Below are positions 6,251-58,655 of a DNA stretch of 64,000 nt, one piece after another. Made by a program: the position numbers and the translations under genes. Position 1 is the first letter of the stretch. Every line of letters begins with the position of its first letter. This DNA comes from a virus: positions 14,782 to 78,781 of the IMG/VR virus record IMGVR_UViG_3300009509_000010, one strand, 5' to 3'. The notes under the pieces are model-generated. The model searched no databases. It had not been told where the DNA came from and saw only the letters and a list, made by a program, of their open reading frames with translations.

Positions 6251-7269
6251 TGCCAGTTGGAAACCTGTTCGATCAGGTCCGGGCCACCGACGAAACCGTG
6301 GCCAAGGCCCTCGGGATCTCCGAGGTGGCCCAGATTGCTCGAACAGAAACCAGGCTGAGGGAATACCTACTAGCCGAATGGAATAGCCGAGCTCGTGAGG
6401 CCGTAACCCAGGCGGCGGCGGGTGCTCGAGGAGGCGCAATCCCAAGCAAGATTTATCGGGAAGTGTCTGGAATTTTAAAGCCGTGGGGACCCGAGGTTGC
6501 CCCAAGGGTCGGGCGAGAGCTCGGAAAAATTTACCGGTTGGCCAAGGTGGCCGGATGGCGCAAGGCCACCGGGCAAACCAAGGCCCCATTGACGTATGAC
6601 ACACCCAATTTTGAACAAATGGCCAAGGCCGCACCTCGTGATGGTTTCGCGGTTTTGCCCACGTTTGACAAGCTCGACACCGACACAATTGACGCCCTAG
6701 CCAATCAACAAGTTTTTTGGCTCGCGGCCCACTACGAGGAAAACGTGGGCGCAATGATCGCCTCGACTGTCTCGGAGGTGATGGCCCAAGAGGGGAGAAA
6801 CCGTCAAGTTGCGGCGGCGGTTTTGCGGGAACGGCTAGCCGAAACCCTTGGGCAAGTGGTGACCCCGGCCGGGTGGCATGGGTCAACGCGGCAATATATG
6901 GAAGGGGTGGCCGCTAATGCTGCCACCGTTGGGCGTGCCTATGGCCAAGTGGCCGCGTTCAACGAGGCCGAGGTTATTCGCTACGAGATCGTCAACCCAA
7001 CCGACGAGCGAACATGCCCGGTTTGTTCGCACATGGATGGCAAGGTATTTTCGACCGAGCATGCAAACCGCCAAGTGGCGGCCGAGCTCGAGGCCGAAAA
7101 CCGGGAAGATATAAAGTCAATTCATCCGTGGTATACCTACGCTAAGCTAACCGATATCAGCCCCAAGGCGGGTAACGTGAGCCCCCAAGACTCCGCCGCG
7201 CTAGCCAAGGCCGGTTACCCGTTGCCACCGTTCCATTTTCGGTGCCGTTGCGCGATCGATGTGAGTTAG
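6250..7269 (+). CDS. Head morphogenesis protein (SPP1 gp7 / Mu F-like)
   Basis: DERTCPVCSHMDGK and C-terminal PPFHFRCRC motifs; follows portal. Confidence 0.88.
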   Translation: MPVGNLFDQVRATDETVAKALGISEVAQIARTETRLREYLLAEWNSRAREAVTQAAAGARGGAIPSKIYREVSGILKPWGPEVAPRVGRELGKIYRLAKVAGWRKATGQTKAPLTYDTPNFEQMAKAAPRDGFAVLPTFDKLDTDTIDALANQQVFWLAAHYEENVGAMIASTVSEVMAQEGRNRQVAAAVLRERLAETLGQVVTPAGWHGSTRQYMEGVAANAATVGRAYGQVAAFNEAEVIRYEIVNPTDERTCPVCSHMDGKVFSTEHANRQVAAELEAENREDIKSIHPWYTYAKLTDISPKAGNVSPQDSAALAKAGYPLPPFHFRCRCAIDVS

Positions 7270-7278
7270 GAGGCCACC

Positions 7279-9867
7279 ATGCAAACCTCGATTACCTCGA
7301 CTCGAAGGCGAGCCCGCCGGGCCCGCGTTGCCAAAACCATAACTACCGACGCGGTCGCCACAAGCGGCAAACTTGACGCCGCGAGTTTGCCCGGTGGTAG
7401 CGGGATCACCGAGTTGTTTGGTCTAGCCGTGACCAAAACCGCAGCGGACAAAATTTTTGCAGGTAAGGTCAAGGCGATTGCTAAAACCACCGATCACAAT
7501 TTTGCAGGCCAGTTAGTGTTGATGTTGGTCAAAGGGCAAGCGGTGGGCGAGGTGGAGTTTGGCGAGCGGCTCGACTCCAAAACGTGGGCCGTTAAAACCA
7601 CCAAGATTTTTGACCGGCCCAAGGCCACCAACGTGCCCGAGGCCGCCGAGGGTGTGGTGGGCGGGGTGCGGGTGCTCGAACGCCGCAAGGCGACATCAAT
7701 TGATGAGCCGGTAACAAAACAACGGGCTAGGGCCTACAACCCGAGCCGCGTGGTTGACCGGGTCCTTTTGTCTGACGTGCGAACCCTTGCCCAATGGGGC
7801 GAGGAGGTGGCGTTGAAAAAGGCCCTCGCCGAGGTAAAGCGCCGTGGTTTGGAGGTCGAGCGGCCCGATAAACTCGAGCTTGCCCCGGACAGTGAGATCG
7901 AAACCTTCGCCACCGTCGAGCTCGTGGCAGCTCACCAAGCGATCCATGTCAACAAGGGGTGGAGCTCCGAGGATATGGTGGGGACGCATGCCCGTATCGT
8001 GGCGGAGCTCGCCGATCGAGGCGTGCCACACCCCGAACCACCGCCGGGGTTGGATGCTCAATCGGTTGTTTTCGAGCCGGCCCGAGTGGCGGTTCTAAAA
8101 TCAGCGGCCGAGGAGGCCCTTGGGGAGATCGTGGCAGCGGTCGAGCGATACCCCGTGTTGGTCCACAAGCGGGTCGAGGGGCGGCCGGTTACGGTCAGCA
8201 AAGCCAAGGATCAGGTCAAGGTGGTGGCCGAGGACGGGGCCGATTTAACCGCCGAGGTTCCCGCGGTCGTTGAAACGATCCGAGCTCTCAAATCCGAGGC
8301 GGTGGAGCTCGAGGGGGTTCTCGAGCCATGGCATGGGGGCGAGGTTTTCCAGGTTCAAGATCTCAGCTATGACGGCCGAGACCTCCGGGATTGGCCCGTT
8401 AGCAAGCGGCTCGAGCGGCTCGCCGAGCTTGGGATCCCGCAAGCTACAAGCGCAATTCCGAGCTTGACGGCCCCCGTCAACGAGTTACCCCCGTTGGAGG
8501 CGACCACCGCCGAAACGCTCGAGCGGGCGATCCGTGTGGTCAAACGGTTGCCCGGTAGTGTTGGGGCCGTGGTCAAGCCCGCCGAGTCGGTGGACCCGGG
8601 CGAATGGTTGGAGCTCGAGGCCGAGCCCGTAACCAAGCTCGAATCAAAAGGCCCTCAAAAATTTGTATTGTGGGCAAATCAACTTTTGGTGGGCGACCGA
8701 GCGGGAAAATTGGCCGAGCGGTGGATCTTGGATTCCACCGACGTCGAGACCACCGAGCAAATCGCCAAACGGGCGGCCCCCGTTCCCAAGGATGCTTTGT
8801 CCGCCGGTGTCGGTGGGGTGACTGATCACGGTGAGGTCGAAACGGGGGCGGTCAAACCGTGGTTGCGGGAATATTTTTTGCGAGGCCAAACAACGGGCAA
8901 CCGGTTGTTGATCCGCAAGCTTACGTTTGGTGAGCTGCAAAAGGCCCAACATTCATACACCCAATGTATGGCATGCAAGGCGGCCCCCGAAATTGATGTT
9001 TTGTGGGCCGACGGGCGTGGGCGGGCGTGGTTTTGTAAGGGTTGTTATCCAAAGTGGCTCCACAAAGGGGGCGGCTCCAAAGACCTCGAGGTAATCGGTA
9101 CCAAAGCGATTATCGGCGGTCGAGCCCCAGCGAAGTATTCGGACCGTCATAATCGGGTGACAACTACCAAGGCCGCCGAGCCACACCCTCTCGGTGGTTG
9201 GCTTGTGGTGCGGGCAAAAGACCCGACGCCTTCGGTCCTTACCGGTGAGGCCGTAACCAAACGGTGGATCCCGCCGCTTGGTGTGTCAGCTTTGCCCGAG
9301 GTGGTGGCCGAGCAGGTGCCTACCGAGCTCGCCTATTGGCGGGCCCAGACATTGGCTGAGGCTCGAGAGCTCCGAGATCAGCTTGTGTCAAAGATCGACA
9401 CAAAGGAGATCGAGCTCGATTTGACCACAGTTTACACTGCCAAACCATCAAATCCGATCACCGAGGTGTCAACCAATGACACCGAGGGGACGGCGGATCT
9501 CTTTGTTCCTATTGCCAAAATTGACACCGACCGGCAAATTGTGACAGGGATTGTATTAGAGCCGGGCGAGGTTGATGCTCAAAACGACACCGTTAGCGAT
9601 GAAGTTATCGAGCGGGCCTCGATCAATTTTCTTTCCCGGTATAATTCCGAAACCCAGCTAGGTTTGATGCACAAGGCCTTTGGAGACATAGGCCTGCAAC
9701 TTGCCGCTAGTTGGGTAGCACTGACAAATCAAACGCTTGGCAAAAAGAAAGTTAAGCGGGGCTCGTGGCTGATGTCAATGAAGGTTATCGATTCGAAACT
9801 TTGGGAACGCGTCAAAAAGGGCGAGTTTACCGGATTTTCGATCGGTGGCGTGGCCAAGGTGCGTTAA
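7279..9867 (+). CDS. Multidomain head polyprotein: degenerate ATP-dependent ligase-like and LigD phosphoesterase-like regions, Zn finger, C-terminal XkdF-like prohead protease domain
   Basis: C-term IVTGIVLEPGEVDAQND...LMH...GSWLM...LWERVKKGEFTGFSIGG (XkdF type); mid HKRVEGRP..LEGVL..FQVQDLSYDGRDL..GAVVK resembles ligase motifs I/III/IIIa/IV. Confidence 0.75.
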   Translation: MQTSITSTRRRARRARVAKTITTDAVATSGKLDAASLPGGSGITELFGLAVTKTAADKIFAGKVKAIAKTTDHNFAGQLVLMLVKGQAVGEVEFGERLDSKTWAVKTTKIFDRPKATNVPEAAEGVVGGVRVLERRKATSIDEPVTKQRARAYNPSRVVDRVLLSDVRTLAQWGEEVALKKALAEVKRRGLEVERPDKLELAPDSEIETFATVELVAAHQAIHVNKGWSSEDMVGTHARIVAELADRGVPHPEPPPGLDAQSVVFEPARVAVLKSAAEEALGEIVAAVERYPVLVHKRVEGRPVTVSKAKDQVKVVAEDGADLTAEVPAVVETIRALKSEAVELEGVLEPWHGGEVFQVQDLSYDGRDLRDWPVSKRLERLAELGIPQATSAIPSLTAPVNELPPLEATTAETLERAIRVVKRLPGSVGAVVKPAESVDPGEWLELEAEPVTKLESKGPQKFVLWANQLLVGDRAGKLAERWILDSTDVETTEQIAKRAAPVPKDALSAGVGGVTDHGEVETGAVKPWLREYFLRGQTTGNRLLIRKLTFGELQKAQHSYTQCMACKAAPEIDVLWADGRGRAWFCKGCYPKWLHKGGGSKDLEVIGTKAIIGGRAPAKYSDRHNRVTTTKAAEPHPLGGWLVVRAKDPTPSVLTGEAVTKRWIPPLGVSALPEVVAEQVPTELAYWRAQTLAEARELRDQLVSKIDTKEIELDLTTVYTAKPSNPITEVSTNDTEGTADLFVPIAKIDTDRQIVTGIVLEPGEVDAQNDTVSDEVIERASINFLSRYNSETQLGLMHKAFGDIGLQLAASWVALTNQTLGKKKVKRGSWLMSMKVIDSKLWERVKKGEFTGFSIGGVAKVR

Positions 9868-50242: not shown

Positions 50243-50926
50243 ATGGTGTTTGGCTTGGGTGAACGGGGCAACTCGGTTTCAAAACTTCAAGGGGACCTCG
50301 GGGTTTTAGGGATTGATCCAGGACCGATTGACGGGATCTTTGGAGCGCAAACCAAGGCGGCGGTGATTGAGTTTCAATCCCGTTACCTTGTGACCGGGAC
50401 CGTTGACCCGCACACCCTTGCCAAACTCGAAAAGGCGGCCGACGCCGAGAGGGAGCGACAAAAAATGGCCGTGCCCGTGCCAAGTGGTCTAGCGGAAATT
50501 GAGCAAACTTTCGGCGTGATTGAATGGGACCGGGCCGAGGGTGGCTATATCGTGATCACCAACGGGTGGGCCAAGGTAAACATTACCACCGAGGTGTTGC
50601 CCGTGGTGGGCAAGGCTCAGATCCACACCAAGCTCGTTTCTACATTTTGGGACGTATTCACCGAGATCGAGGGCGAGGGGTTGGCCGACGAGGTAGAGCA
50701 GTTCGGCACGTGGTGCCCGCGCCACAAAATGCACAACCCAAACCGGGGCCTAAGCTCTCACAGTTGGGCCATAGCCTGCGATCTCAATTGGGCGACCAAC
50801 CCGGTTGGGCGAGCGGGCGACCTCGACCCCAAGATCGTGCAAATCTTTGAAGCCCACGGTTTTGTTTGGGGAGGTAGGTGGAAACATAGGGATGATATGC
50901 ATTTTCAGTATTGCCGAAACTACTAG
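50243..50926 (+). CDS. Endolysin: peptidoglycan-binding domain + M15 Zn peptidase
   Basis: DGIFGAQTKAAVIEFQ PG-binding; SSHSWAIACD and WGGRW..DDMHFQ M15 motifs. Confidence 0.9.
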   Translation: MVFGLGERGNSVSKLQGDLGVLGIDPGPIDGIFGAQTKAAVIEFQSRYLVTGTVDPHTLAKLEKAADAERERQKMAVPVPSGLAEIEQTFGVIEWDRAEGGYIVITNGWAKVNITTEVLPVVGKAQIHTKLVSTFWDVFTEIEGEGLADEVEQFGTWCPRHKMHNPNRGLSSHSWAIACDLNWATNPVGRAGDLDPKIVQIFEAHGFVWGGRWKHRDDMHFQYCRNY

Positions 50927-50940
50927 CCAAGGGGCCGAGT

Positions 50941-51441
50941 ATGAGGACGCTTTTGTTTGCGATTATCTTGTTGCTACCTATGACCGCAATGGGCCAACCA
51001 ATACCGACCGAGCCAAATCCCGCGGCCGCACCATTAGCGGCAACTTATGTCGGCGCCTCCGAGGTGGAGAAAACCGATCCCAAACCGGTTGACGCGGTGG
51101 CCCTCGTGACCTCGGTGGGACAAGTGGTCAACGATTGGAAAAACGTTGGGTGGCTAGCTGGCGTGATTGCCTTGATCAACTTTTTGTTGTCGTTGTTGCG
51201 CTTCAGGCCGATCGACATGGCTATGGATCGAGTTGATATCAAGTGGTTGAAACCTTTGATCGCCACGCTGCTCGGTGCGGCCCTTGGTGGGTTTTCGACC
51301 TTCGAAACGGGAGCGGGGGTTCTTAACTCCATTGTGGCGGGGATGCTCGCGGGGCTCGGTTCGGTTGGTTTTCACGAGCTCGTTGACAATTTGCGCAAGC
51401 AAACCCGCAAAGCAACCAAGCCAGATGAACTCGTGAGTTGA
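50941..51441 (+). CDS. Holin-like membrane protein
   Basis: Signal-like N-term plus 3 TM segments, GLGSVGFHE; follows endolysin. Confidence 0.6.
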   Translation: MRTLLFAIILLLPMTAMGQPIPTEPNPAAAPLAATYVGASEVEKTDPKPVDAVALVTSVGQVVNDWKNVGWLAGVIALINFLLSLLRFRPIDMAMDRVDIKWLKPLIATLLGAALGGFSTFETGAGVLNSIVAGMLAGLGSVGFHELVDNLRKQTRKATKPDELVS

Positions 51442-51445
51442 CGCA

Positions 51446-51724
51446 GTGGACGGGGTTTGGATCGTTGTTGGCTTGGTGGTTGGGGCCGCCGCTCTGTTTG
51501 CTGTGGCCAAAATATTCGGAAACGATGGCCGCAAACAAGACCTCGTTGGGGACGCCGCAAAGCGGGCCGAGGACGTGCGGGCCGCGGCCGAGGCCGCTCT
51601 AACCGTTGAGCTTAGAGTGATAGAAGACACCAAGGCGGAACTCGAGGCAATCAAGGCGATTTCAAATGACGCCGAGCGGCTCCAAGCCCTCGCCGATTTT
51701 GCCAATCGGAGGCGGTCAAAATGA
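51446..51724 (+). CDS. Putative i-spanin-like protein
   Basis: N-term TM then coiled coil; lysis cassette. Confidence 0.45.
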   Translation: MDGVWIVVGLVVGAAALFAVAKIFGNDGRKQDLVGDAAKRAEDVRAAAEAALTVELRVIEDTKAELEAIKAISNDAERLQALADFANRRRSK

Positions 51725-52077
51725 TTTGGTGCGTGATGACATTGGCTTTCGTGGCGGCGGAGCCTCCGGATCCGGTGGTGGTACCGTTGCAACGAAACTA
51801 TCGAGCCCCTTTTGATGGCCTGCTTGTGCCCGAGGCTAGGTTTATCGAGCTTTTGGAGGCCGAGCGGTGGTCAAAGGAACTCGAGGTAAGGCTCGAGGCC
51901 GCCGAGCAAACCAGTGCGGCGATTGAGCAGGTTTACCGGGGCAAGCTGCGGGACGCGGTCGCAACGCCATGGTATGACTCGCCGAGCTTCAACCGGTGGC
52001 TTGGGATTGTAGTGGGTGGGGCGGTGGCGGGCCTCGCTGTTTGGGCGGTGGTAGAGCTTCAAGCGGCTAACCGCTGA
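51721..52077 (+). CDS. Putative spanin-like membrane protein
   Basis: Signal-like N-term, APFDGLL, coiled coil, PWY..W then C-term TM. Confidence 0.4.
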   Translation: MIWCVMTLAFVAAEPPDPVVVPLQRNYRAPFDGLLVPEARFIELLEAERWSKELEVRLEAAEQTSAAIEQVYRGKLRDAVATPWYDSPSFNRWLGIVVGGAVAGLAVWAVVELQAANR

Positions 52078-52081
52078 TCTG

Positions 52082-52090
52082 TGTTACGCT
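52082..52090 (+). promoter_or_regulatory. Possible extended -10 promoter (TGtTACGCT) for a leaderless transcript starting at 52097
   Basis: TGn+TACGCT, ATG 7 nt downstream, no Shine-Dalgarno. Confidence 0.4.
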
Positions 52091-52096
52091 CAACCC

Positions 52097-52381
52097 ATGG
52101 ATGACCTGATCAAGCTCGCGGTAGAGATTGCCAAGGGGAGTTCTACCCCGGGCCTCGTTTTGGTCCTGACGATCTTGCTAGGTCTGGCTCTGTGGGCATA
52201 TTGGCAAGAGAGGAGGGCAAACCAAAAGGTGGCCGATCAACGGCTTACCGAGGCCCGTCAAGACACCGAGGCAATGACAAGCGCCCTACACGAGGCAACC
52301 CACGCGGTCGAAAGCTTTAAAAACTCGAATGAGGCCTTGAAGCACGCGATCGAGTTGATGCTCCAAAGTAGGCATGGGTGA
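52097..52381 (+). CDS. Single-TM coiled-coil membrane protein (holin-like or partner of MshEN protein)
   Basis: PGLVLVLTILLGLALWAYW TM followed by coiled coil; overlaps next gene. Confidence 0.55.
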   Translation: MDDLIKLAVEIAKGSSTPGLVLVLTILLGLALWAYWQERRANQKVADQRLTEARQDTEAMTSALHEATHAVESFKNSNEALKHAIELMLQSRHG

Positions 52382-52778
52382 GGAAATGAAAGCCTACAAG
52401 ATCGGGGGCAACGACCCCTTTATTAAGGCGGCCAAGGATTCGACCTCTATCGGCAATCTCGCGGTTGCAAAGGGGTGGATCTCCAAGGAGGACCTTGAAA
52501 AGGCCCTTTTGGTGCAACGGGAAAAACTCCGACTCGGTGAGATATTTGTGGATTTAAAGCTTTTAACCGAGGAACAACGCGACGAGCTTTTATTCGAGCA
52601 AAGGCGGCGGCGGGGTTACAAAATCCCAATTGAGGAACTACGGGCGTTTGAGCGGGAAAAACTCCAACGTCGGCTCGAGGGGCTCAAAGCTGGTTTTCGG
52701 GAGGCAAGCAAGCACGCCAAAAATTTTGCTTGCGAGATCCATAGCCTAACAGGGGATACCATTGGCGATCCCGAGTAG
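52374..52778 (+). CDS. Standalone MshEN-motif (c-di-GMP receptor-like) protein
   Basis: Two tandem 24-aa motifs SIGNLAVAKGWISKEDLEKALLVQ and RLGEIFVDLKLLTEEQRDELLFEQ. Confidence 0.72.
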   Translation: MGEEMKAYKIGGNDPFIKAAKDSTSIGNLAVAKGWISKEDLEKALLVQREKLRLGEIFVDLKLLTEEQRDELLFEQRRRRGYKIPIEELRAFEREKLQRRLEGLKAGFREASKHAKNFACEIHSLTGDTIGDPE

Positions 52779-53360
52779 GTCCTCGTGGGTGGGTTGCGTG
52801 TAGATCGAGGTGGTTACGATATTGGTGTGGCGCGCGAATATCTGAACCGCTCGGATGTCTTTTTTCAAGCGGTAGGCGTTGGTGCAAGCCGTATGCCGCA
52901 AGCAGTGGAAATGGTAGAGCCGTTCAAAGCCCGCCTTGAGTTGCCAGTCCTGAAACATGGCGCGCATACGGCGGGTGGATATCCTGTTGCCTTTGCGGCT
53001 CACAAACAACGGGGCGGAGGGGTCGAGCGACTCGCCGCGGTCCCGTTTCCAAGCTAGATAACGGTTGAGCTTGTGGCGCAAATCATCGCCCAAGAGGACC
53101 TCTTGGGGTGTACGGTGATCGGTGCACCGCTTGAAAACCCGCAGCTCGACACGGCGGCGGGCGTTACCGTTTCGGTTGACCACGTCCCCCACGTCGAGGG
53201 CGGCGATCTCCGACTCCCGCAACCCCGTGCCAAGCGCCACCGCGAAAACCATGTGATCGCGGTATCCCGCCACGTGTTGGCCGGTAACGGCGAGGAGTGC
53301 GGTTTGCTCTGCTTCGGTAAGGGTTTTGGGCGCTAGGCCTCGGCGTGCGTAGTTGGCCAT
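52746..53360 (-). CDS. Tyrosine recombinase, catalytic domain only (204 aa)
   Basis: RD..GTGLRESE (R), HCLRH (HxxR), ARH..TTSIY (H,Y); RBS AAGGAG. Confidence 0.9.
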   Translation of the reverse strand: MANYARRGLAPKTLTEAEQTALLAVTGQHVAGYRDHMVFAVALGTGLRESEIAALDVGDVVNRNGNARRRVELRVFKRCTDHRTPQEVLLGDDLRHKLNRYLAWKRDRGESLDPSAPLFVSRKGNRISTRRMRAMFQDWQLKAGFERLYHFHCLRHTACTNAYRLKKDIRAVQIFARHTNIVTTSIYTQPTHEDLLGIANGIPC

Positions 53361-54380: not shown

Positions 54381-54604
54381 GCCGTTTCCATCATGGGCCC
54401 GAGGCTATGACCCGAGCGAACCTCGACCTTCTGGGTGATGATGTGATTTCGATTTTTCCCGTGTGTCACATGGGGGCGCCGGTGTTTGTGGCTTATCTTA
54501 CTGAGGAGGGCACCTTGGCCTTGACTTGCGCGGTGTGTCGAAAACTTGTGGCCAAAGTGATGGTCGCAAACGCCGGGTCCCAATTTTCGCGAGGGGTGCA
54601 TTGA
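54377..54604 (+). CDS. Small Zn-ribbon-like protein
   Basis: PVCH..LTCAVC; ATGA overlap. Confidence 0.5.
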   Translation: MSRFHHGPEAMTRANLDLLGDDVISIFPVCHMGAPVFVAYLTEEGTLALTCAVCRKLVAKVMVANAGSQFSRGVH

Positions 54605-54882
54605 TGGCAGCTCTACCCGAGGTCGCCCGGGAGGCAGGCCTTGACCCCATGCTTTGCCCCTTTTGCTTGCGGCGTGTCCAGACCACCGACGCGGTGGACC
54701 TTTTATTTCAATCCATTTTGCAACGGATCCGGCGGGGCGAAACCGTGCATATTAGGGGGTTTGGTTCGTTTCGGACCATGCGACGGGCGGGGCGGGGTCT
54801 CGCCAAGGAGGCCGGTGACTATACGGTGATCCGGTTTATAGCGGCTCCAAAAGCCAAAAGGATTGTCCGGGATGGCAAATGA
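54604..54882 (+). CDS. HU/IHF-like DNA-binding protein
   Basis: ILQRIRRGETVHIRGFGSF..R.GR..VIRFIAAPKAK. Confidence 0.78.
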   Translation: MAALPEVAREAGLDPMLCPFCLRRVQTTDAVDLLFQSILQRIRRGETVHIRGFGSFRTMRRAGRGLAKEAGDYTVIRFIAAPKAKRIVRDGK

Positions 54883-57941: not shown

Positions 57942-58201
57942 CAAGGATCGAGTTACTTGCGGCCGAGGTGGCAGCTCTGGCCAAGACGATTCAAAAATTC
58001 GAGGCTGCTTTGTTTGATGTCAAACAAACCTATTGGGCCAAGATACGTGATTTTTACCTAGAACAGAGCAAAGGGGTGGATATGGGGCCATTTGATGACG
58101 CTGTCTCGGAGGAGCTTTTAGAAAGGCTACGCAACGGGACCGCGACGGCTGAGGACGTGTTTCGGGTGGCCGAGGGGGCGGTGGTGCGGGATGACACCTA
58201 A
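57938..58201 (+). CDS. Hypothetical protein
   Basis: ATGA overlap, RBS GGAGG. Confidence 0.5.
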   Translation: MTRIELLAAEVAALAKTIQKFEAALFDVKQTYWAKIRDFYLEQSKGVDMGPFDDAVSEELLERLRNGTATAEDVFRVAEGAVVRDDT

Positions 58202-58655
58202 ACGCTTCGCCGAGCTCCAACGGCTCAATCGAGCGGTCCAAGAGGGGGACGAACGGGCCGACCTCGACGAGGCGATCGAGGTTTTGCTCGACGCGGTGCC
58301 CGAGCTCGTGGCCGAACTCGAGCGGTTTTTTGACCCGATGGCCCGGCCGGTGGTCGCAATCGAGAGTCCTTTCGGGGGGGCGGTCGAGGAAAACACCCGG
58401 TTTGCTCGATTGTGTCTGCTCGATTCGATTCACCGAGGGGAGGCCCCCTTTGCGGGCCACCTGCTCTATACTCAGGTTTTGGCTGACGCAAACCCCACCG
58501 AACGGGAGCTAGGGATCCGGTCCCATCTGGCCCATGTGCAACGCTCGCAAAGGGTGGCGGTTTATGAGGACCTCGGGGTCTCGATCGGTATGGATCGGGC
58601 GGTCGAGCTCGCCACCGAGCTCGGGATCCCGGTGGAGCATAGGCGGATCGCGTGA
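58191..58655 (+). CDS. Nucleoside 2-deoxyribosyltransferase-like (DUF4406-type) protein
   Basis: VAIESPFGG..N..FAR..GEAPFAGHLLYTQ..ERELG..VAVY.DLGVSIGM..A..LGIPV. Confidence 0.65.
   Translation: MTPKRFAELQRLNRAVQEGDERADLDEAIEVLLDAVPELVAELERFFDPMARPVVAIESPFGGAVEENTRFARLCLLDSIHRGEAPFAGHLLYTQVLADANPTERELGIRSHLAHVQRSQRVAVYEDLGVSIGMDRAVELATELGIPVEHRRIA

Follow-up and report, generated by a model that had tools for sequence, protein, structure and literature searches.

In MshE, an ATPase from Vibrio cholerae, the N-terminal nucleotide-binding subdomain, MshEN_N, is a 53-residue tandem of two 24-residue motifs folded into a four-helix bundle (5HTL; Wang et al. 2016, PMC5013675). The sole polar contacts with cyclic di-GMP (c-di-GMP) are made in each motif by Gly3, together with the backbone amide of the next residue, and by Gln24, the remainder of the site being hydrophobic; guanine specificity comes from the backbone amides at positions 3-4 of each motif, cyclic GMP-AMP (cGAMP) is bound weakly, and the isolated MshEN_N subdomain alone binds c-di-GMP at ~0.35 μM (PMC5013675). 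Thermus thermophilus PilF (8PDK, 9G1W) carries GSPII-B, which has Lys and Leu at position 1 instead of two Arg and yet binds more tightly, giving an R/K/L consensus (PMC11731258), and GSPII-A, a non-binder in which both Gln are lost, motif-II position 1 is Ser and an N-cap blocks the site (PMC12002112). MshEN_N is already known in bacteria as a detachable c-di-GMP input, as in the cellular fusions with the NfrB glycosyltransferase, histidine kinases and PatA_N/DUF4388 repeat proteins; here it occurs in a phage, as half of a lysis-cassette pair. The two genes in question, one for a stand-alone MshEN_N-like protein and one for a small membrane protein directly upstream of it, lie in a 64,000-nucleotide stretch of DNA (the window) that is part of a 78.8-kb IMG/VR virus record (IMGVR_UViG_3300009509_000010). 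An earlier reading of this DNA, the original prediction, had proposed such a pair at the end of a lysis cassette. Its parts, in window coordinates, are the following.

52082-52090, + strand: extended −10-like element TGTTACGCT, 6 nucleotides upstream of ATG 52097
52097-52381, + strand: membrane partner, 94 residues (open reading frame, homologues and AlphaFold2 (AF2) model)
52374-52778, + strand: MshEN_N-like protein, 134 residues from ATG 52374 or 130 residues from ATG 52386
52446-52517, + strand: motif 1, S25-Q48, SIGNLAVAKGWISKEDLEKALLVQ (from the sequence)
52518-52529, + strand: linker REKL, 4 residues, where canonical MshEN has 5 and close homologues have RQxVP
52530-52601, + strand: motif 2, R53-Q76, RLGEIFVDLKLLTEEQRDELLFEQ (from the sequence)
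52629-52754, + strand: C-terminal helix of 42 residues (86-127), AF2 predicted local distance difference test (pLDDT) ~96

The reading frame, the two tandem 24-residue motifs at 52446-52601 and the 4-residue linker are as originally predicted, and so are the deviations, which are Ser25 for the first Arg and Lys62 and Arg69 for the second Gly and one Leu of motif 2. Motif 1 retains Gly3, Gly10, Leu17, Leu21 and Gln24, Arg1 being replaced by Ser, and its hydrophobic and turn set is complete (I26, G34, L41, L45). Motif 2 retains Arg1, Leu2, Gly3, Leu21 and Gln24 and deviates from the set formed by hydrophobic positions 2, 17 and 21, turn Gly10 and a 5-residue spacer: L54 and L73 are present, Gly10 has become Lys62, Leu17 has become Arg69 and the spacer has 4 residues. 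Of the two possible start codons, ATG 52386 is preceded by GAGGA and is the one used in the database copy P0001.

Profile and fold comparisons identify this protein as a member of the MshEN_N family. NF053729, a 53-residue NCBIfam model, matches residues 26-76 over positions 2-53/53 with 45.9 bits (cut-off 38; E 3.7e-12), and distant family members likewise exceed its cut-off. A phmmer search matched T. thermophilus PilF at E 8.9e-9; a profile of the 47-member family alignment (26-64% identity) aligns residue for residue to V. cholerae MshE 5HTL residues 9-61 at E 9.6e-10 and matches PilF at 2.8e-22. The AF2 model (pLDDT 89.8) is a compact four-helix bundle with helices at 26-32, 38-48, 54-60 and 66-79, and its best Foldseek matches in the PDB are only c-di-GMP-bound PilF GSPII-B and MshE, with probability 0.99-1.0 and a root-mean-square deviation (rmsd) of 1.0-1.3 Å. 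VIA-align superimposes it on 5HTL and 8PDK with Z 9.1-9.4 and rmsd 1.6-1.9 Å over 56-58 residues. Within that range MshE gives Z 9.1 and rmsd 1.9 Å over 58 residues, and PilF GSPII-B, the best match in both sequence and fold, gives Z 9.2-9.4 at 39-41% identity over 56 residues; for contrast, an unrelated fumarase C-terminal domain scores Z ~6 and non-binding GSPII-A Z 5.0. The motif-2 start 'P-LGEILV', common in the phage family, is found in PilF too.

These matches in sequence, profile and fold, which go far beyond chance, establish homology despite the silence of two resources. Neither the window protein nor any of the 47 family members matches the Pfam MshEN model PF05157 at E <= 1; that model covers both MshEN subdomains, and the second is missing here. 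None of them has a match in PHROGs. The search with MshEN profiles bears out the predicted homology through NF053729 and not through PF05157. Recurrent Pfam matches to FumaraseC_C and DUF4388/PatA_N were set aside as reflecting a similar small helical fold and not function. Separately, residues 24-42 (52443-52499) give a weak match to Pfam Phage_holin_10, the cyanophage Pam3 gp28 'holin' family (E 0.036), as do 3/47 family members (best E 0.007); that family may contain an MshEN-like half-motif instead of a transmembrane (TM) segment.

The window protein is thus a true stand-alone MshEN_N-type module in a phage, lacking both MshEN_C and an ATPase. Where the MshEN_C α/β subdomain would stand, the AF2 model has one long helix (residues 86-127), amphipathic with a 3-4 heptad pattern from L101 to L125 and conserved at E88, L89, E93, R94, K96, R100, L101 and F108; the tail behind the bundle has a net charge of +4. 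No T2SSE-type ATPase follows, as predicted: the protein has no more than 134 residues, and after it comes the integrase gene, convergent with its own. A search for longer fused relatives was empty, though this is weak evidence. Searching the full library with the family profile gave ~40 clusters of ~103-140-residue proteins that match over their whole length; cellular proteins, multi-repeat or fused, with a match to the bundle only number in the thousands. The phage-encoded protein differs from MshE also in running on into a long basic helix and in being gene-coupled to a membrane protein.

That pairing recurs in every locus compared. Viral and metagenome collections yielded six further loci (L001, L003, L004, L006, L007 and L008, down to ~30% identity), and in 7/7 loci, the window included, the MshEN-like gene is immediately preceded by one for a coiled-coil protein with a single TM segment. 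The two genes either overlap, as ATGA or TGATG, or are separated by <=14 nucleotides with a Shine-Dalgarno sequence in the end of the upstream gene; in the window, the overlap of the original prediction is 8 nucleotides with ATG 52374 and becomes a 4-nucleotide gap with ATG 52386. Partner homologues 82-92% identical sit on the same contigs as MshEN-like homologues 57-64% identical (the contigs of P0002/P0169, P0003/P0167 and P0005/P0168).

The surroundings of the pair are those of phage lysis. The window and L001 have it behind genes for an M15 endolysin and a holin. Its neighbours in L004, L007 and L008 are a Peptidase_C92-like hydrolase together with small multi-TM proteins, and L006 has it flanked by a multi-TM protein on one side and an Amidase_2 on the other. 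The context in 5/7 loci is one of late genes for lysis and structure, and an integrase adjoins the pair only in the window and L001. Recurring in 7/7 loci beside three endolysin types, the pair belongs to lysis cassettes and is a component of them in all three cassette types, the predicted position at the end of the window's cassette being one instance. As to the Cys-containing neighbour of ~170-180 residues (L004 694-1203; L007 4997-5545; L008 ~1340-1850), it matches Peptidase_C92, a permuted papain-like amidase family, at E 8.5e-5 and is probably the endolysin; phrog_1128 (E 1e-18) labels the same family 'enoyl-CoA hydratase/carnithine racemase-like', a label that looks misleading.

The 94-residue partner, which is the upstream single-TM coiled-coil protein of the original prediction, consists of an acidic amphipathic N-terminal helix (residues 2-14), a TM segment at ~19-35 and a long coiled coil whose heptads run regularly between L50 and M88; AF2 models helices at 2-14 and 18-93 (pLDDT 77). 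Its N-tail is acidic or neutral in 7/7 loci (net charge 0 to −2), and the 15 residues past the TM segment are net basic in 6/7 (+1 to +2; 0 in L007). By the positive-inside rule these charges predict, on balance, an N-out/C-in protein with a cytoplasmic coiled coil. The tail of the MshEN-like protein is net basic in 7/7 loci, and each of the two proteins carries 4-5 heptads of amphipathic helix, judged from sequence and AF2. A complex prediction for partner residues 37-94 with the MshEN-like protein scored 0.02, which gives no verdict and is not evidence either way.

Our leading explanation, to which we would give slightly less than an even chance, is that the pair is a membrane-tethered second-messenger receptor that modulates lysis as a two-protein module of the cassette. 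The 94-residue protein would be anchored in the inner membrane by its single TM segment with the long coiled coil in the cytoplasm, and the 130/134-residue protein would be cytoplasmic, its bundle corresponding to that half of the MshE/PilB N-terminal domain, 53 residues long, which binds the nucleotide. The basic amphipathic helix would dock on the helix of the partner or on the membrane, and the bundle would bind c-di-GMP or a close relative. Ligand occupancy could then alter the action of the pair on holin triggering, in an antiholin-like or a holin-cofactor-like direction, with the bundle as input and the paired helices as output onto holin function, so that lysis timing would be tied to the second-messenger state of the host.

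The working mode, though not the family, may resemble that of T4 RI/RIII antiholins and BhlA-type proteins, where holin triggering is modulated by a small protein in the membrane and a small helical one in the cytoplasm. No relation to T4 RI/RIII is detectable in the sequence, and T4 lysis inhibition senses superinfection and not a nucleotide. Only the L007 partner matches the BhlA-type model PF10960, over its full length and below the cut-off (16.8 bits vs 22.6; E 0.007); the window partner has no match to it. Cellular MshEN_N fusions share with the phage the use of this bundle as a detachable input domain (the NfrB model is matched at E 5e-5 to 7e-7) and differ in their output, which in the phage would be a separate, translationally coupled membrane protein of the lysis cassette and not a fused enzyme. 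One locus, L005 897-1916, encodes a cellular histidine kinase that begins with a canonical MshEN_N bundle and continues into a coiled coil and HisKA/HATPase; a second kinase, of GAF type, lies beside it. By analogy, this known signalling protein, which shows the same wiring of sensor to helix, supports a receptor reading of the pair.

The architecture of the partner also invites comparison with spanins, in that the 94-residue protein would be an inner-membrane spanin (i-spanin) and the downstream gene would merely occupy the place of the outer-membrane one (o-spanin), the two disrupting the envelope. An N-terminal TM segment followed by a coiled coil fits this. The partner also has weak matches among Rz-like spanin PHROGs (E 5e-4 to 2e-2) and one with TIGR03495 LysB that falls well short of the cut-off (E 0.003), and the gene order and overlap resemble i-/o-spanin pairs. 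However, the MshEN-like protein is a cytoplasmic-type helical domain that has neither a signal peptide nor a lipobox Cys (maximum 17-residue hydropathy 0.56), no embedded lipoprotein or lipobox reading frame was seen in the alternative frames, and the charge distribution of the partner predicts a cytoplasmic and not a periplasmic coiled coil in 7/7 loci. With the defining lipoprotein signal of an o-spanin missing, the spanin explanation fails, and we place it last among the rivals, as very improbable. The recognisable lysis genes of the window's cassette likewise include no o-spanin.

Whether the bundle is likely to bind a nucleotide can be judged from the family alignment. In motif 1, position 1 is Ser in 43/45 members, Gly3 is kept in 44/45, Asn4 in 40/45 and Gln24 in 46/47. 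In motif 2, Gly3 and Gln24 are each found in 47/47, position 10 is Gly in 33 and Lys in 9 (n=47), position 17 is Leu in 23 and Arg in 21, and position 1 varies or is missing, Pro frequently standing right in front of Leu-Gly. The polar-contact residues are all present in the window copy (G27, Q48, G55, Q76), and, as in MshE, Gly3 and Gln24 are kept in both halves. Known non-binding relatives lose these contacts: PilF GSPII-A has H33 and R62, and XpsE has G11V, G40L and Q61V. At position 1, where the consensus residue stacks on guanine, the window copy has Ser25 in motif 1 and Arg53 in motif 2, and so does not carry R/K/L in both motifs; MshE has Arg9 where the phage protein has Ser. An Arg at this position is dispensable, given that PilF GSPII-B binds with Lys and Leu, residues that themselves differ from the Ser of the phage family. 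The family thus keeps the residues that non-binders lose, yet has a half-site 1 that is polar in a family-specific way. From this alignment we put c-di-GMP binding by the phage family at roughly even odds, and regard binding by the window copy as plausible at odds somewhat below those of the family, since it adds Lys62, Arg69 and the 4-residue linker.

Several observations weigh against the receptor explanation. The near-invariant Ser at motif-1 position 1 (43/45) lies outside the published R/K/L consensus, and Ser at the equivalent position of motif II is one of the deviations of non-binding PilF GSPII-A, which shares this feature with the phage family and has lost the Gln that the family keeps. 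Judging by PMC12002112, the S-x-G-N sequence could N-cap a helix and so occupy the backbone amides that bind guanine. The clade of the window has Arg at the position equivalent to Leu54 of MshE, and two features are confined to the window copy, Lys in place of Gly47 and a linker of 4 and not 5 residues, departures from MshE on top of the Ser for Arg9. The soluble protein evolves much faster than its partner, a pattern that would fit diversifying or relaxed selection as well as it fits a conserved sensor. The topology of the partner is a prediction from the positive-inside rule, and a periplasmic coiled coil, as in an i-spanin, would leave the two proteins without contact. Finally, ligand binding is a putative step, and the reading presupposes a host that makes c-di-GMP.

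The same residues bear on the strongest rival, a ligand-independent adaptor, in which the bundle has been co-opted as a protein-binding module and acts with the partner as a holin cofactor, an antiholin or a scaffold. MshEN-type N-domains can bind protein, and complexes of the Xanthomonas PilB N-domain with PilZ are among the fold matches (Z 8.0-8.1). Also in favour of an adaptor are a Ser at position 1 and an Asn at position 4 of motif 1 that hardly vary, the variable or missing position 1 of motif 2 and the further deviation of the window copy (K62 and R69), and PilF GSPII-A shows that a well-conserved motif can exist without binding. What the adaptor leaves without an obvious reason is the invariance of two surface-exposed Gln24 and two Gly3 at 26-64% identity, residues that the known non-binders have lost. 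We consider it unlikely, although it leads the other alternatives, which we rank, from more to less likely, as a c-di-GMP sponge, a changed ligand specificity, a PilB decoy and the spanin-like pair.

A changed specificity would read the polar half-site differently: Ser and Asn would re-tune the pocket, for example to 3'3'-cGAMP, and make the protein a binder that counters the cyclic-oligonucleotide-based anti-phage signalling system (CBASS), or a sensor of a defence signal. MshEN binds cGAMP weakly and draws its guanine specificity from the backbone amides at positions 3-4 (PMC5013675), and the invariant polar substitutions are confined to half-site 1. The proposal is purely inferential, however; PADLOC returned no match for the pair or its two upstream neighbours, there are no defence-related neighbours, and a lysis-cassette location with a membrane partner is atypical of known sponges. 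We give it only a slight chance. Returning to the receptor explanation, its most specific and far-reaching version holds that tailed phages of several lineages carry in their lysis cassettes a membrane-tethered cyclic-dinucleotide receptor, for c-di-GMP or, via the Ser/Asn half-site, for 3'3'-cGAMP, that sets or vetoes holin triggering; this we regard as doubtful, if less so than the adaptor.

The region upstream of the pair bears on when it might be expressed. The original prediction of an extended −10 and no ribosome-binding site stood in part: TGTTACGCT is present, no Shine-Dalgarno sequence lies between it and ATG 52097, and the same geometry is found in L001 at 6915-6923, where TGCTACACT-N6-ATG follows the shared pattern TGnTACnCT-N6-ATG with a diverged 6-nucleotide spacer. 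A generic sigma-70 scan did not call the element at 52082-52090, because there is no −35. A promoter for a leaderless transcript of the pair is possible, and only that, since the element is short and lacks a −35 and since in other loci coupling links the partner gene with the one before it. A hairpin resembling a terminator at 52062-52075 is not kept in L001. The source DNA is present in two marine-sediment metagenome runs of one study, and no RNA run is listed among the sequencing runs that contain window DNA.

A possible promoter of its own, together with the adjoining integrase, a typical moron position, would suit a protein made in bulk, late or from a lysogen promoter, to sequester c-di-GMP and thereby change biofilm, motility or surface glycans and not lysis timing. 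The binding of c-di-GMP by isolated MshEN_N (~0.35 μM; PMC5013675) speaks for such a sponge. Yet a sponge does not need the membrane partner, which is present in 7/7 loci; in most loci the pair has late genes for lysis and structure around it and no integrase close by; and sequestration late in infection would leave little time to act. On these contextual grounds a sponge, though possible, is less likely than a sensor, and we hold it to be improbable.

The original prediction had offered, as another outcome, a decoy for superinfection exclusion that mimics the N-domain of PilB, titrates a PilB partner and turns off type IV pili. Homology to PilB and PilF N-domains is in keeping with this; small phage proteins that inhibit PilB are known (Tip, Aqs1 and Zip; PMC11656802), and the integrase makes the window phage probably temperate. 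These known inhibitors, however, show no relation to the module in either sequence or fold, and their targets are N2D or PilZ-PilB (PMC11656802), while MshEN_C and all other parts of PilB are missing here. Moreover, the context in 5/7 loci is that of late lysis and structural genes and not of lysogeny, a decoy would not need the membrane partner, which it leaves unexplained, and nothing ties the module to pili. This part of the original prediction was not borne out, and we judge a decoy highly unlikely.

The neighbouring genes on which the lysis context of the window rests are given below.

50243-50926, + strand: endolysin with PG_binding_1 and Peptidase_M15_4, first gene of the lysis cassette
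50911-51441, + strand: Hol118-like holin (PF06946 E 3e-6; phrog_1299 E 1e-8), with a 16-nucleotide overlap with the endolysin gene
51446-51724, + strand: 92-residue protein with an N-terminal TM segment and a charged helix, no function assigned
51721-52077, + strand: 118-residue protein with hydrophobic N- and C-terminal segments and no lipobox, no function assigned
52746-53360, − strand: tyrosine recombinase, 204 residues (PF00589 E 9e-26; phrog_216 E 3e-34)

The genes of the window are nearly all on the + strand, and terminase, portal and structural genes are among them together with the lysis cassette; the portal has relatives at ~31-33% identity in phages of Streptomyces, Bacillus, Rhizobium and Vibrio, a scatter that gave no host assignment. 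The 92- and 118-residue small membrane proteins sit between the holin and the pair, neither with a lipobox, and the L001 homologue of the 118-residue protein lacks the Cys. The 92-residue protein was considered as a paralogue of the 94-residue partner and rejected (hhalign probability 0.5%). The recombinase gene is convergent with the MshEN-like gene, their 3' ends sharing 33 nucleotides, and L001 is arranged likewise (7583-8197); the protein comprises the catalytic domain without a recognisable N-terminal core-binding domain. Downstream of the integrase, the early/replication region encodes an HU/IHF-like DNA-binding protein (54526-54882; PF00216 E 7e-7) and a DUF7768 protein (58191-58655; E 7e-26).

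No counterpart of the module was found in deposited phage genomes, in PHROGs or in the papers searched, in line with the statement in the original prediction that no such phage module was known. A tblastn search against 50,697 deposited phage genomes gave no match, and a degenerate DNA pattern for DPxSxGNLA(I/V)xxG in 185,579 species genomes gave 10 matches, all of them chance by translation. Nothing was found by a profile search of genome contigs or by viral scans with the single sequences P0014 and P0043, and the papers searched contain no published phage example of an MshEN_N module. The closest cluster in the ESM Atlas consists for the most part of viral proteins.

The moment of lysis is central to the life history of a phage, and it is known to respond to the concentration of holin, to the energisation of the membrane and, in T4, to superinfection. 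If the receptor explanation is true, a phage could sense, ahead of lysis, whether its host is planktonic or part of a biofilm, and lysis time would be coupled to the sessile, motile or alarm state of the host. The pair would then found a new class among lysis regulators and be the first receptor of the MshEN type in a virus, extending that receptor family to viruses, in a module that is small (two genes, ~230 codons) and recurs in several uncultured phage lineages. Should it bind no nucleotide, it would still be a conserved component of lysis cassettes that PHROGs and Pfam leave blank.

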